This document shows positions 7,975-13,930 of a stretch of 64,000 bases of DNA, one piece after another. A program made the translations under genes and the position numbers. Location of the stretch: positions 2,912,001-2,976,000 of the forward strand of contig CAVUSO010000001.1 in the NCBI GenBank assembly GCA_963744145.1, written 5' to 3'. Source of the stretch: an uncultured cyanobacterium (GTDB taxonomy: Bacteria; Cyanobacteriota; Cyanobacteriia; Cyanobacteriales; CAWUOF01). The stretch's first letter is position 1. The number at the start of each line of letters is the position of its first letter. The notes beneath the pieces were generated by a model. That model searched no databases and was not told the DNA's origin. It saw only the letters and a list, made by a program, of their open reading frames with translations.

Positions 7975-8630
7975 CAGTTTTCCTCCCTAAATTGACTTGC
8001 TGAAAATCTAACTATGACCCACTCGAAAAATTACATAAGACTACTGATTTTATGATTTTAGCCAATATTTTGAAATTTTGGGCGATCGCGCTTTGATAAT
8101 TTTACCGTATTACTGATGTATCAATTCAAACTTGACTTTAACCGTATCCCAGAATATTTATAATCGACTATGTAGTTTTTTGTATCGCGATCGCGATACC
8201 ATTATATTAGATCCGAATGCTTCACCCTTCTAAAACCGAGATATTCCAAAAAATTCTTAACTGAATGGATTTTAATATATAGTTGATCTGTTGGTTGCAT
8301 AGATGGTGAGGGCAAAGCATTTCGGTAATATTATCCTTCGCTTCAGCAATTATTTATGCGCCGAAATGCTTTGCCCCTACGAGGAACTGAACTGGATTGA
8401 TATTTAATCAGCGATCGCTTACAGATCAATGGGGTGTAGGGGCGAAGCATTCGGGCGATAATTTACCGCTTAAACCAGCAATATTAGATCCGAATGCTTC
8501 GCCCTTCTTCTGCGTCGAGCTCCCAAAAAATTCTGAACTGAATGTATTTTAATATATAATTGATCTGTTGGCTACATAGATGGCAGGGCAAAGCATTTCG
8601 GTAATATTATTCTTCCCTTCGACTACGCTC

Positions 8631-10087
8631 CAGGGTAAGAGCATCTCAATTAGGCTTGACACAAGGATTAAGAAGGATCTAATGTAGACTCAGAGAAACA
8701 AGAAAGGAGGATTTGGAGCATATAATTATTATCCATAGCAGCGCGTTTACTTTTCTGGCGTAAACTGCGTTTGTAAGTTGACTCGCGATTAAGAGCGTTG
8801 AGAGCTAATCGTCTGAGCAGAGAAAAGTTACGAGGACTGTGAAAAGAACGAATGCGACAGCTATCTTCAAAAAAAGTACAATCTAAAGTCCAGTGTGCAG
8901 AATTTTCGATTTCCCAATGTTGACGAATAGCTCGACCTATGAATTCAGCATTGTTGTCTAAAGAAGTAAGATAGTATTGAGTCTCGCAAGTAGTTTTGTT
9001 CCAAAGATGACGGATACGATGAATGATGACAATACTTTTTAAACCTGCCCATAATTTGGGTTGGTAAAGGTCAGGAATGGCCGTAATAGGGAGCACCCAA
9101 ACTTCACGAATTTCCACCCGATGATGCCCTTTCTCAATCCGTTTGTCATGAGTGAAATCAATTCCTGAAAAATTATTTTTCTGTGCAGTTTGGAAGAATT
9201 GTTGTACCTGATTATGTAAAGTTGGATGATTGGCTTTAAGTGTCAGAATATAATCAGCTTTTTTATCAATAATCTTTTGAGCAATTTCGGTTTGGGTCCC
9301 CATCGCATCAATAGTAATAATTGAGCCAGCGATATCAAGTAACTCTAGTAATGCTGGAATAGCTGTAATTTCATTGGATTTATCTTGGACTTTCATTTGT
9401 GCTAAAACTAATCGTTGTTCACTAGCCCACGCACTAATCAAATGTAATGCTGATTGTCCTTGATTTCGGTCATAGGAACCTCTGACAGTCTTCCCATCTA
9501 TGGCAATTACTTCTCCTCCCATTTGAGTAACTAAGGTGTTTACCCAAGCTTGAAAACATTGCTCCAATTGGTTGGGGTTAATACTTTCAAATACTCGACG
9601 AAAGGTATCATCTGAGGGAATACCATTGGGTAATTCTAAAAACTCTTCTAGCCAAATTTGTTTACTAATCCCATAATTCTCAATGTCTTCCCAGCCTTGT
9701 GCTCCAGCTATTATGACCAGAATTGCCATCACTAAAATGTCTATCAATAAGTGTTTTTTTGTTCGGTTTACTCTCGGGTCTTCAACATCTTCAAAATGCT
9801 TGACTAAACTCTGTTGTATTTCCATCAAGTCAGCTACTACTTGGTTTTTCCTAGCAGAATGGGAGTTTTGTTTAGCATTAGCTATATTGATATCGAACCC
9901 TTGAGACATTTGAATATTCCTGGAGATTATGAGTTGGACGGTATAGTTTTTCACCTACCACTCTCTATGCTCTTTTGTCAACTATTTTCTCTACCAGATT
10001 TGTGATGTTCTGATCTCGATGGCTATATTTCATATTTGATGAAAATATTCTGTATCCTCGGTGACAAAATTAGATGCGCTAACCCTG
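8631..10087 (-). mobile_element. Complete ISAs1-family insertion sequence (1457 bp)
   Basis: Terminal IRs CAGGGTAAGAGCATCT / AGATGCGCTAACCCTG; 10-bp target duplication GACTACGCTC at 8621-8630 and 10088-10097. Confidence 0.95.
8668..9909 (-). CDS. ISAs1-family DDE transposase
   Basis: DPR, GIPSDDTF, AIDGK, SNEITAIP, TIDAMG, HWEIEN..HW.LD..F.ED. Confidence 0.95.
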   Translation of the reverse strand: MSQGFDINIANAKQNSHSARKNQVVADLMEIQQSLVKHFEDVEDPRVNRTKKHLLIDILVMAILVIIAGAQGWEDIENYGISKQIWLEEFLELPNGIPSDDTFRRVFESINPNQLEQCFQAWVNTLVTQMGGEVIAIDGKTVRGSYDRNQGQSALHLISAWASEQRLVLAQMKVQDKSNEITAIPALLELLDIAGSIITIDAMGTQTEIAQKIIDKKADYILTLKANHPTLHNQVQQFFQTAQKNNFSGIDFTHDKRIEKGHHRVEIREVWVLPITAIPDLYQPKLWAGLKSIVIIHRIRHLWNKTTCETQYYLTSLDNNAEFIGRAIRQHWEIENSAHWTLDCTFFEDSCRIRSFHSPRNFSLLRRLALNALNRESTYKRSLRQKSKRAAMDNNYMLQILLSCFSESTLDPS

Positions 10088-10290: not shown

Positions 10291-11001
10291 CAGTAATATT
10301 AGATCCGAATGCTTGAGCCCTTCTTCTGTGCCGAGATATCACAAAAAATTCTTAACTGAATGGATTGTAATATCTAGTTGATCTGTTGGTTGCATAGATG
10401 GTGAGGGCAAAGCATTTCGGTAATATTATCCTTCGCTTCAGCAATTATTTATGCGCCGAAATGCTTTGCCCCTACGAGGAACTGAACTGGATTGGTATTT
10501 AATTAGCGATCGCTTACAGATCAATGGGGTGTAGGGGCGAAGCATTCGGGCGATAATTTACCGCTTCAACCAGTAATATTAGATCCGAATGCTTCGCCCT
10601 TCTTCTGCGCCGAAATCCCCAAAAAATTCTTAACTGAATGGATTGTAATATCTAGTTGATCTGTTGGTTGCATAGATGGTGAGGGCAAAGCATTTCGGTA
10701 ATATTATTCTTCGTTTCAGCAATTATTTATGCGCCGAAATGCTTTGCCCCTACGAGGAACTGAACTGGATTGGTATTTAATCAGCGATCGCTTACAGATC
10801 AATGGGGTGTAGGGGCGAAGCATTCGGGCGATAATTTACCGCTTAAACCAGCAATATTAGATCCGAATGCTTCGCCCTTCTTCTGTGCCGAAATCCCCAA
10901 AAACATTATAGTTTAAGCAACTAATGAAATGCTGTACACCCCATTCCTACGTCATCCAATTTTTCAGAAAAATATTGTTGATCTTTTAGAAAAGCTATAT
11001 G

Positions 11002-12510
11002 TTAGAGTCTAGAGAAGAGAAAAGAGATACCCCCACACAACCCCCACACAACAGCACACACAACGCCCCGCACATCAAACTCCCCACCCCCCCAACCCCC
11101 CCACCCACAATCAGGGAGGTGTCCCACAGGAGCAGATATATTAAAAGTGAGGTCAGAGTAGCTCAACCAGCTTCCTCCTTTTTTCCAACCGACTTCATTT
11201 GCTAGTTTAACATAAGTATCGTAATCATAACTATCTAGCTTACCACCCAATTTGAGCCAGATTTTCTTCTGGACTGAAAACCCAAATTTGTCATTAGAAT
11301 GCTTTAACCACAACTGGTCAATGATCCGCAGTTCATTGTTCGGAAAATTACGACAGTTATCTTCTGTTAAGTATCCCTCTTTTTCCCTGTTCATAATTTT
11401 TAACATGACTCGACCAGTTTCTTGATCTGCTTCTTGCCATTTTTTGTCTGATAATAATTGCTCCAGTTTCCTCAAATCAGCTTTAGGTGTAACTAAATTA
11501 ACTTGGGGTGATGGAGGAGAAATTGGTTGAGGAATTGGTTGAGGAGGTTTAACAACAGGTTGAGGAATTGAGGTCGGTTGTAAATTCGCTAAAACCTCCT
11601 GTGCTGATGAAAACCGATCGTCTATCCGATCCTGTAACATCTTATCTAAAACTTTCGCTAAATCTCGATTAACAGAAATCCCTTTTTTCTGTAACCATTC
11701 TTTCCACACCCAGGATAAACTATTGAGATTGAAAATTTCATCCACAACTGAGCCATTTCTTTCCGTTGGTAATACTCCCGTTAATAATCTAATCGCTGTT
11801 ACTGCTAAACTATATAAATCACCAGAAGGGTGAAAACCTCCTCTCATTTGTTCTGGGGGTGCATAACCAGGAGTTCCTACTCCCGTCCCCAATTTAGTCA
11901 TTACTGTCGTACTGACTTGTTTAGATACACCAAAATCAATTAACACCAAATTGCTCACTTGACTATAAATCGCTGCATCGAGGGGGATACTACGACGGAT
12001 AATATTTTCTGGCTTAATATCTCGATGAATTACCGACTTTTTATGAATAAAATCTAAAACAGGTAAGATTTCTAATAGGAAATTTTTCACCTGAGTTTCG
12101 CTCAATCTCCCCGACTGTTGTAATTCGGCTAATAAATTTTGACCGGGAATAAATTCTTGAATTAAATATAATATCCCCTCCTGTTCAAAAAAAGCTAATA
12201 AATCAGGAATTTGGGGGTGTTTCCCTAATTTTTCTAATAAATCTGCTTCTTGTTCAAACAATTGAATACATTTTTGTAAAGCACCACTACCTTGTTGTAC
12301 GGGTAAGAATTGTTTAATCACACATTGAGTATTACGTCGATCTGTATCCACCGCGATCAAAGTTCGACCAAATCCACCCTCACCCAGGGAACGGATCAGA
12401 TGATAGCGATCGCGCAAGAACATTTTTGTCCCACAACCCTGACAAAACTTAGATTGAGGGGGGTTTTCGTAGGAACAATTAGGGTTAAGACATTTAATAA
12501 GGTTACTCAT
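11002..12510 (-). CDS. Ser/Thr protein kinase with N-terminal Cys4 ribbon, Pro-rich linker and C-terminal GUN4-like domain
   Basis: CLNPNC..CQGCG, LGEGGFG, HRDIKPEN, DFG, GTPGYAPPEQ; WQEADQET, IDQLW..S..KFGFSVQKKIW, APVGHLP. Confidence 0.92.
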   Translation of the reverse strand: MSNLIKCLNPNCSYENPPQSKFCQGCGTKMFLRDRYHLIRSLGEGGFGRTLIAVDTDRRNTQCVIKQFLPVQQGSGALQKCIQLFEQEADLLEKLGKHPQIPDLLAFFEQEGILYLIQEFIPGQNLLAELQQSGRLSETQVKNFLLEILPVLDFIHKKSVIHRDIKPENIIRRSIPLDAAIYSQVSNLVLIDFGVSKQVSTTVMTKLGTGVGTPGYAPPEQMRGGFHPSGDLYSLAVTAIRLLTGVLPTERNGSVVDEIFNLNSLSWVWKEWLQKKGISVNRDLAKVLDKMLQDRIDDRFSSAQEVLANLQPTSIPQPVVKPPQPIPQPISPPSPQVNLVTPKADLRKLEQLLSDKKWQEADQETGRVMLKIMNREKEGYLTEDNCRNFPNNELRIIDQLWLKHSNDKFGFSVQKKIWLKLGGKLDSYDYDTYVKLANEVGWKKGGSWLSYSDLTFNISAPVGHLPDCGWGGWGGGEFDVRGVVCAVVWGLCGGISFLFSRL

Positions 12511-12660
12511 AATTTTGGAGACCTGATGTGATAAAATCAATTAGGTGGTTCTGATCATATCAGAAAAATTAATGGCGTTGCTGATGATCGGCAGACACCA
12601 AGAGATAATCAGGCAATTCCTGGTTTAGCAATATCAATCAAAACTCGCGCTGCAAGCACT

Positions 12661-12981
12661 ATGACTCCTCTATTAATGCTTCAACCCTCATCTCTAATCT
12701 CCTCTGGTGTTAAAATGAGGCAATTCGGTAATATTTATTTATTCAGGTTTACCGATGAACTCCAGTTTCGCTTTGAAGAACTTTTAGAAAAGAAAAAAGC
12801 TCATATACTCACTCCTAACGAAGAAGCTGAATATATGGGAATATCAGAACTAGAGCAGATTTTTACCCTAATTAACGCTCAACTTGCAGCCAAAAGCCAA
12901 TGGTGTCCAACTCAACTCGAAGACTTGTACGACGACGAGCCCGATACCTCTGTGAATACTGTCATTCCCCCGAATATCTAA
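12661..12981 (+). CDS. Hypothetical antitoxin-like protein overlapping the HNH gene
   Basis: RFEELLEKKK...LT..EEAEY; overlaps downstream HNH ORF by 82 nt. Confidence 0.6.
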   Translation: MTPLLMLQPSSLISSGVKMRQFGNIYLFRFTDELQFRFEELLEKKKAHILTPNEEAEYMGISELEQIFTLINAQLAAKSQWCPTQLEDLYDDEPDTSVNTVIPPNI

Positions 12982-13346
12982 GTCCAGACCGTTTCACAAT
13001 TGACCATATTATGCCTCAATCTTTAGGAGGATCTGACCAACCTGATAATCTTGCTTTGGCTTGTCATCGCTGTAACGAGCGCCGTTATAACTTTACATCA
13101 GGAATTGATCCCCAAACTCAAGCAGAGATCCCTTTGTTTAATCCCCGTCAACAACAGTGGTCTGATCATTTTATTTGGACAAAAGACGGTACAATAATTT
13201 TAGGAAAAACTCCTACAGGTAGGGCTACTGACCATCGCATTGACTTAAATGATAAACGCATTGATGAGCCATCTATTCAAATTGCCCGTCGTTTTTGGAT
13301 AGTAGCAGGTTGGCATCCACCTCAGCTTGATCCGCTTCAAGAATGA
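12900..13346 (+). CDS. HNH endonuclease
   Basis: CEYC, IDHIMP...GG, NLALAC.RCN, LFNPR...W..HF.W, TPTGRAT. Confidence 0.9.
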   Translation: MVSNSTRRLVRRRARYLCEYCHSPEYLSPDRFTIDHIMPQSLGGSDQPDNLALACHRCNERRYNFTSGIDPQTQAEIPLFNPRQQQWSDHFIWTKDGTIILGKTPTGRATDHRIDLNDKRIDEPSIQIARRFWIVAGWHPPQLDPLQE

Positions 13347-13365
13347 CGAAGTTAAGGTGTTGCTT

Positions 13366-13930
13366 AATCAGCGATCGCTTGCAGATCAATCCGGTGTAGG
13401 GGCGAAGCATTCGGGCGATAATTTACCGCTTAAACCAGCAATATTATATCCGAATGCTTCGCCCTTCTTCTGCGCCGAGCTCCCCAAAAATTCTTAACTG
13501 AATGGATTGTAATATCTAGTTGATCTGTTGGTTGCATAGATGGTGAGGGCAAAGCATTTCGGTAATATTATTCCTCGCTTCAGTAATCATTTATGCGCCG
13601 AAATGCTTTGCCCCTACAAGGAACTGAACTGGATTGGTATTTAATCAGCGATCGCTTGCCGATCAATCGGGTGTAGGGGCGAAGCATTCGGGCGATAATT
13701 GAACAATCAAGCCAGCAATATTATACCCGAATGCTTCGCCCTTCTTCTAAAGCCGAGAGTTCCCAAAAAATTCTTAACTGAATGTATTATATAATATTTA
13801 GTTGATCTGTTGGTTGCATAGGTGGCAATGGCAAAGCATTTCGGTCATATTATTCTTCGTTTCAGTCATCATTTATGGGCCGAAATGCTTTGCCCCTACA
13901 AGGAACTGAACTGGATTGGTATTTAATCAG
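13366..13930. repeat. Second REP-hairpin tandem array (~2 units, ~282 bp), same family as 8203-10903
   Basis: Same hairpins A and B and linkers; AAGGAACTGAA at 13618 and 13900. Confidence 0.92.

Follow-up and report, generated by a model that had tools for sequence, protein, structure and literature searches.

The window analysed here is a 64,000-nt stretch of DNA from an uncultured cyanobacterium (assembly GCA_963744145.1, contig CAVUSO010000001.1, positions 2,912,001 to 2,976,000 of the forward strand), in which a gene on the minus strand encodes a Ser/Thr protein kinase joined to a GUN4-like domain and ends in a tail very poor in adenine. This kinase-GUN4 gene had been flagged by a reading of the letters only (hereafter, the sequence-only reading), which took the tail for a candidate hypervariable region, possibly written by an atypical diversity-generating retroelement (DGR) or by a different mechanism. 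The tail was found to have three parts, namely the conserved codons of a GHLP motif, a tract of G and T, and a conserved module of about 30-40 nt presenting an LFS-type ending and a stop codon in each frame. The features of the gene, with the positions of the window, are the following:

11002..12540, minus strand: kinase-GUN4 gene, 512 codons from the first TTG (open reading frame (ORF) list and translation)
11590..12405, minus strand: Ser/Thr protein kinase domain, residues 46-317 (PF00069, 138 bits, cut-off 31.7)
11110..11481, minus strand: GUN4-like core domain through GHLP, residues 354-477 (PF05419, 136 bits, cut-off 29.2)
11028..11112, minus strand: hypervariable tract of 85 nt encoding DCGWGGWGGGEFDVRGVVCAVVWGLCGG, with G and T only except for four A and three C, two G7 runs and a quadruplex-type motif
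10995..11027, minus strand: terminal module TCTCTTTTCTCTTCTCTAGACTCTAACATATAG, a conserved pyrimidine element
10917..10994, minus strand: non-coding 3′ flank common to three other copies of the cassette described below

The stop codon of the gene occupies positions 11002-11004, and its database copy is 502 aa long, starting at an ATG 10 codons further on. The kinase translation contains the HRDIKPEN and DFG catalytic motifs of a Hanks-type Ser/Thr kinase, and a weak zinc-ribbon match lies N-terminal to it (residues 20-40; PF12773 and PF13240, both under the Pfam cut-offs). The match of the GUN4-like domain to PF05419 spans profile positions 6-124 of 141, that is, it stops at GHLP. The nearest protein, from ENA, was 76% identical by full alignment, and the nearest named relative was a protein of Crinalium epipsammum PCC 9333 (74% identity); thus, no near-identical orthologue was found in the protein search.

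The base counts on the minus strand agreed with those of the sequence-only reading, being 3 A, 9 C, 50 G and 38 T in positions 11011-11110 (3 A per 100 nt) and 2 A, 3 C, 50 G and 26 T in positions 11030-11110 (about 50 G in 81 nt), in a gene whose overall content is 30% A and 23% G. The frame described as remaining open after GHLP does so, the translation reading ...GHLP DCGWGGWGGGEFDVRGVVCAVVWGLCGGISFLFSRL*, and the switch is as sharp as had been proposed, with the composition changing right behind GHLP, whose Pro codon has its last base at 11113, and ending at the pyrimidine tract before the stop. An 11-nt tandem duplication had also been reported, which exists but lies at 11031-11052, shifted by one base from the position given; compared to composition-matched shuffles, it was borderline (p=0.054). 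Regarding the rarity of this composition, stretches with at most 2 A in 80 nt occurred in only 10 regions of the 7.7-Mb genome on both strands, two of them being GUN4 tails and eight apparent regular tandem repeats, as judged by eye. Moreover, 14 windows had at least 42 G+T out of 45 nt, of which all six irregular ones lay in GUN4 tails (five assigned by script and one by coordinates) and the other eight were regular tandem repeats. The sole other A-free stretches in the genome were of this kind (coordinates outside the window refer to contig C1 of the source genome, G000):

C1:5244351-5244524, C1:7241046-7241182 and six more: G/T-only tandem repeats of the (GTTGGT)n and (GGGTTG)n types

Furthermore, 84 quadruplex-type motifs were counted in the genome, 11 of which stood directly after a GHLP-like motif. 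The G runs of the tract are able to pair with the pyrimidine module, and no signal of RNA structure was obtained for tract plus module (z from −1.3 to +1.3 in eight copies) or for a 141-nt region (z −0.95).

The position of the tract in the fold was addressed with AlphaFold2 (AF2), whose model of the whole protein had a mean predicted local distance difference test (pLDDT) score of 85.6, the kinase and the GUN4 core being confident. A Foldseek search with the whole-protein model listed kinases only, and the domain was then folded separately. The resulting model matched GUN4 structures generally with Z 18-21.5, and porphyrin-bound Synechocystis GUN4 (4xkb) at Z 21.5 and a root-mean-square deviation of 1.3 Å over 142 residues, placing model residues 5-173 on chain residues 48-228 in alignments that report ranges rather than residue pairs. 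Between GHLP and the last helix, the tract formed a low-confidence insert (pLDDT <50 over residues 484-500), followed by the module as a terminal helix (residues 500-511, LCGGISFLFSRL, pLDDT 81-91). Judged by these models, the module corresponds to the last GUN4 helix and the tract to an expanded α6/α7 loop, the ligand-contacting loop being swapped for a loop of Gly, Trp, Val and Cys that AF2 cannot place. According to the accessible part of Verdecia et al. 2005 (PMC1084334), it is the α6/α7 loop of canonical GUN4 that carries Leu210, Arg214 and Arg217 at the porphyrin site. When aligned by sequence to solved GUN4 structures, the domain matches up to GHLP, and the tract holds one Arg. A correspondence between the Arg of LFSR and Arg214 was considered and dropped, because the structural alignment reaches chain residue 228 and the terminal helix matches the last helix, not the loop. 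Of the sharply bounded, hypervariable, ligand-binding tip that had been suggested, the hypervariability and the predicted position at the porphyrin-contacting loop were retained, while the term 'ligand-binding' is reasonable by position only.

The GUN4 end of the gene belongs to a cassette of about 650 nt, with 83-90% DNA identity, which is common to genes with at least four different N-terminal parts; its hosts are three kinase types, a 938-aa TPR-containing protein and a 238-aa ORF. Each cassette comprises, in this order, the end of a linker, the GUN4 body, the tract and the module, followed in the terminal copies by the 3′ flank. Two adjoining genes harbour five of these cassettes:

C1:7458208-7461405: 1066-aa kinase with four tandem GUN4 cassettes and near-identical Pro/Ser/Thr linkers, each cassette with its own tract
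C1:7455668-7457131: 488-aa gene with a near-identical kinase domain and one cassette, adjoining the 1066-aa kinase gene

Conservation was high on both sides of the tract. Among eight cassette copies, the 120-codon body before it showed a synonymous divergence (dS) of 0.03-0.28, and the first 60 nt behind the module were 95-98% identical among four terminal copies. A fifth copy of the 3′ flank, with no GUN4 gene directly upstream, was observed at C1:7454115-7454220. The tracts, whose left boundary falls inside the Pro codon of GHLP and whose right boundary is at TCTCTTTTCTC, varied from 51 to 88 nt, and those of the eight copies aligned no better than shuffles in the 28 pairwise comparisons (mean z −0.19, maximum 1.8). 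In a blastn search of the whole genome, none of the eight tracts had a second copy; apart from self hits, only short low-complexity matches (27 nt at most) were obtained. Near-identical cassette copies therefore carry unrelated tracts of differing length, and these enter the module in all three frames.

In particular, over nine cassette copies the tract length modulo 3 was 0 in three, 1 in five and 2 in one, so that an identical module of 23-26 nt is read in three frames. The module of the kinase-GUN4 gene reads ISFLFSRL*, with (V)SLFSSLDSNI* in frame +1 and (Y)LFSLL* in frame +2, and the readings found across the cassette copies were FLFSRL* (kinase-GUN4 gene), LFSSLDSNM... (which continues into the next cassette) and LFSLL*. 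Outside the source genome, the module was present in a family-level relative as well as in other cyanobacteria represented by metagenome contigs, and it reads LFSSLDSNT* or LFSLL* there. The metagenome copies, located by an exact 22-nt pattern, were identical to it at 27-28 of 28 positions, while their domain DNA was only 58-69% identical. An exact-pattern scan of genome contigs gave four loci, one being the family-level relative; the other three, with no GHLP upstream, were rejected as apparent chance matches. As a separate observation, a kinase ORF at C1:2896303-2896333 ends just past its HRD motif (…VHRDVKPG) in a module copy read CFSFLFYRI*, which suggests that a deletion joined the catalytic loop to the module.

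At the level of the family, the three canonical endings, ...LLSRKDL*, ...FSRAKTC(N/K)L* and ...LA(S/Q)RLVxC(N/K)I*, result from reading a single colinear DNA core (...TCTTCTCTCGCG..AGACTTGTAACCTGTAA.ATATAA...) in its three phases, with an Arg codon in every phase. A total of 29 tails end with the 10-mer AGACTTGTAA (at most 2 mismatches), whose phases 0, 1 and 2 give ..RLVxCxI*, ..SRAKTCNL* and ..SRKDL*, respectively, and were counted 3, 5 and 10 times in the source genome and 3, 6 and 2 times in other genomes. The kinase-GUN4 gene is of the phase-0 class with an early stop (AGA CTC TAA). In more diverged tails, Arg, Leu and Ser change codon family and the residue is retained.

The source genome had 54 GUN4 matches. 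In 42 paralogues, the stretch following GHLP had a high content of Gly, Trp, Val and Cys and differed in both sequence and length from one gene to another, and most of these tails ended in an L(F/A)S(R)-type motif near the stop. The 4-fold degenerate sites of the 42 tails had 30% G and 22% A, compared to 11% G and 31% A in the domain bodies (chi-square p 1e-27); therefore, amino-acid choice cannot by itself account for the bias of the tails. In each of 28 other genomes of the order, the best GUN4-like gene was examined, and these showed the same architecture, with a milder bias (27% vs. 16% G). It should be noted that an A-free sequence cannot hold TAA, TAG or TGA, and that a tract made almost solely of G and T thus leaves almost no stop codon possible in any frame. 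Among 38 tracts of the genome, 29 of the 76 alternative frames were open, compared to 14% in length-matched pieces of domain bodies, and one alternative frame of the kinase-GUN4 gene tract was fully open, ending in ...SLFSSLDSNI*. With regard to a second GUN4 subfamily, a non-coding flank reaching 120-270 nt past the stop was 75-87% conserved in 12 copies of the source genome (e.g. C1:3279373-3279646, 4710408-4710689 and 378988-379281), with the motif ATATAACAATTTCAGG lying beyond the last of three stops.

An apparent replacement of a tract between close relatives was seen in a second genus, in which the proteins of two species are named Microcoleus. Over about 1 kb, five kinase-GUN4 orthologues of this genus are 93-97% identical, but they bear two unrelated tracts, one of 89 nt and one of 61 nt (z 0.95). 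The module DNA behind the two is the same and, depending on the tract, is read as FSLLSH(R/Q)EL* or SSLASRAVSCNL* (short endings SHREL* and SLASRAVSCNL*, respectively). Either type of tract was 95-100% conserved, with the same length, among the species having it; within a lineage, the tract is as stable as its flanks. Moreover, one of these genes is a recombinant at GHLP, with the body end of one type and the tract of the other. A second copy of either tract was absent from the five genomes, and no donor cassettes appeared in the tract searches of the source genome and of these five. Identity of the segment in orthologues of related strains, which the sequence-only reading had named as evidence against local diversification, was found in other lineages, so the tail does not mutate continuously; nevertheless, 5 of 13 orthologue groups included at least one pair with a much more diverged tail, such as P0007/P0010 (body 93%, tail 32%) and P0038/P0039 (91% and 56%).

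The reading preferred here, with a probability of roughly 60%, is that the flagged stretch serves as the variable spacer in a frame-tolerant tail at the end of GUN4-like sensor domains of filamentous cyanobacteria, in which tracts are replaced in rare saltatory events. Tracts would be exchanged in rare wholesale jumps, not by continuous hypermutation, and the stop-free G/T alphabet together with the three-frame module would make any new tract length viable, so that paralogues could acquire different loops at the ligand site. More tentatively, new tracts might arise where a sequence with many G runs and prone to quadruplexes undergoes slippage or duplication and break repair, or by recombination using the conserved flanks as handles; neither a reverse transcriptase (RT) nor a template would take part. 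Footprints of slippage were significant in two of the eight tracts (p416, p=0.001; p7459b, p=0.004), that of the kinase-GUN4 gene being the borderline case mentioned above.

Several results weigh against this reading. Both alternative frames were open in only 7 of the 38 tracts (3.6% in controls), and the other alternative frame of the kinase-GUN4 gene tract holds one TGA. Tandem-duplication footprints were absent in five of the eight tracts. In other lineages, the tail was conserved as much as the body or more in 8 of the 13 orthologue groups, and the 18 Microcystis-type representatives of 652-656 aa listed shared one common tail, with single substitutions in two; most tails are under ordinary purifying selection, with no continuous mutation. 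Furthermore, variation at third positions of the module was only weakly in excess in phases 0 and 1, with no excess in phase 2, and the conservation of the DNA extends beyond the last stop; a conserved non-coding element might thus explain, as a side effect, why the module can be read in three frames. It is also possible that the flanks were homogenised by gene conversion with old tracts left untouched. Finally, the comparison was made on assembled sequence, among genomes that include no close strain of the source organism.

These points lead to the main rival explanation, drift with gene conversion, which is unlikely but deserves serious weight. According to it, the tract is an old, weakly constrained, low-complexity linker rich in Gly and Trp under concerted evolution, where conversion homogenises the body and the 3′ element and halts at the tract, and the ORFs run into the 3′ element and end at an in-frame stop. 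The conservation past the last stop (ATATAACAATTTCAGG-type sequence and the flank of 120-270 nt in 12 copies), the lack of a codon-position signal in phase-2 modules, the stability of orthologue tails and the second-genus recombinant exactly at GHLP all fit it, as does a 3′ flank (95-98%) more conserved than the silent sites of the body (dS up to 0.28). However, the four-cassette protein of 1066 aa has long homology on either side of tracts that are unrelated at dS 0.03-0.17, and no tract is common to any two of the eight copies, though conversion should sometimes copy one. Nor would a drifting AT-rich linker be expected to gain G and lose A at silent sites. Also against this rival, the module is modelled by AF2 as a confident terminal helix superposing on the last GUN4 helix, and Arg, Leu and Ser switch codon families in more diverged tails with the residue kept. 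An origin of the tract as untemplated junction filler, by G/T-biased synthesis or break repair when a GUN4 body is joined or re-joined to the module, seems improbable; in that case junctions would have random lengths, and the module would be selected for three frames for that reason. Such a system, by which signalling and conflict proteins of cyanobacteria would vary the ligand loop of their sensor domains, would be comparable to junctional diversity, but bacterial and in the germline. It is doubtful, too, that the G7 runs slip often in the population and switch loops and C-terminal endings in the manner of poly-G phase variation. Two such runs and the 11-nt duplication do lie inside the ORF, the G/T tracts are depleted of stops and all three downstream frames give family-type endings, but one of the two shifted frames of the kinase-GUN4 gene meets its TGA, and tracts of one type are 95-100% identical and equal in length between second-genus species.

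The writing of the tract by a DGR or another RT-templated process is very improbable, and this part of the sequence-only reading is already largely refuted. A C-terminal variable region with conserved flanks on a kinase-fused sensor of a cyanobacterium would suit a DGR, and searches for an A-rich template and for an RT locus had been proposed. The blastn search of the whole genome with the region and the eight tracts gave no template, and three RT matches were obtained:

C1:5012329-5012829: RT fragment of 183 aa with an IGNLTSQ motif (profile positions 74-216 of 263)
C1:3190312-3190773: intact Drt5 defence RT (659 bits, cut-off 550)
C1:5091854-5092474: CRISPR-associated RT directly upstream of a Cas1-like gene

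None of them is an intact RT of the DGR type, in a genome that is 96.3% complete and could have missed such a gene. The IGNLTSQ motif of the fragment may be DGR-like, but the fragment is partial and the repeats beside it, considered as a template and variable repeat pair, were rejected for being non-coding repeats resembling miniature inverted-repeat transposable elements (MITE-like). Moreover, no tract has a second copy in the genome, the tract lengths (51-88 nt) fall in all three classes modulo 3 instead of being constant, and the fold is that of GUN4 rather than a C-type lectin or Ig-like one. The doubt already voiced about the DGR pattern, on account of the loss of A and the G/T third positions, was thus justified. 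As for an assembly artefact in the G-rich homopolymer region, it is hardly credible. The G7 runs are error-prone in long-read assemblies, and an error of homopolymer length in the two runs of the tract is possible; nevertheless, the adenine-poor feature is real, because it recurs in eight paralogues and in other genomes, the architecture being found again in eight further cassette copies, other genomes and metagenomes, and the frame arrives at a canonical ending.

The surroundings of the gene in the window contained the following features:

8668-9954, minus strand: transposase ORF of 428 aa, with 11 genome copies that are 99.5-100% identical
12900-13346, plus strand: 148-aa ORF with an HNH-type motif (…DHIMPQSLGG…CHRCN…), adjoining the kinase gene upstream and overlapping a 106-aa ORF
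8397-8552, 10532-10688, 10770-10916 and 13327-13497: copies of a palindromic MITE-like repeat (GGCGAAGCATTCGG...CCGAATGCTTCGCC)

The transposase ORF lies 1 kb from the kinase-GUN4 gene, on its downstream side, and apparently represents an insertion sequence that is still active; a link to the cassette was rejected, as none of its 11 near-identical copies lies near another cassette copy. A very high contig depth over the MITE-like repeat was seen in a public soil metagenome run. Among the assembled contigs of public sequencing runs, including one run with 55% of the sampled words, none spanned 11028-11109, a result that bears neither on variation of the tract nor on its presence or absence. Rfam gave no family over 10500-11400, with only sub-threshold hairpin matches in the MITE-like repeats, and a promoter and terminator scan of 10450-11150 found nothing.

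If the reading of rare tract replacement is true, a ligand-site loop exchanged in jumps would explain how paralogues diversify in specificity without a retroelement, and the tail would clearly exemplify, in nature, a coding sequence arranged to withstand frameshifts, by means of a stop-free two-letter alphabet and a triple-frame terminal module. A full-text literature search found no paper describing a frame-tolerant GUN4 tail. In many kinases and NACHT/STAND, caspase-like and TIR proteins of cyanobacteria, a GUN4-like domain is presumed to form the sensor end, as stated in the accessible part of Kaur et al. 2020 (PMC7159879). Compared to canonical Synechocystis GUN4 (PDB 1y6i/4xkb), as far as it is described in the accessible part of PMC1084334, the loop of the kinase-GUN4 gene likewise starts at GHLP and leads into the last helix. 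In contrast, the canonical loop is short and conserved, whereas the paralogues here have mutually unrelated loops of 25-30 residues made up of Gly, Trp, Val and Cys. Judging from an alignment that ends at GHLP and a structural match that gives ranges only, the two porphyrin arginines are apparently not conserved.

Kinase-fused DGR targets are known in cyanobacteria (Vallota-Eastman et al. 2020, PMC7517822). To the extent that the accessible part of that source describes DGR variable regions, the GUN4 tract resembles them in being C-terminal and sharply bounded, with conserved DNA on both sides, and in varying between paralogues on a sensor fused to a Ser/Thr kinase. It differs from them in having neither a template repeat nor an intact RT, in length changes that include non-multiples of three, in the lack of an adenine-specific pattern, in a GUN4 fold instead of a C-type lectin and in being stable once formed.

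With respect to simple-sequence repeats, the tract shares G homopolymer runs within the reading frame and a downstream frame set by tract length with contingency loci. Such loci drive phase variation through poly-G or short repeats in Neisseria, Haemophilus and Campylobacter. Unlike them, the GUN4 tails do not switch on and off but have a family-type ending in all three frames; their tract is irregular, not a pure repeat, and its stability between species argues against rapid switching. On the other hand, domain swapping at conserved flanks takes place in the target-recognition domains of type I restriction hsdS genes and in pilin cassettes. Although the GUN4 tails differ from these in having no silent donor cassettes and no tract common to two genes in the genomes searched, they share with them discrete unrelated segments set between conserved recombination handles, and one second-genus gene is recombinant at the boundary.

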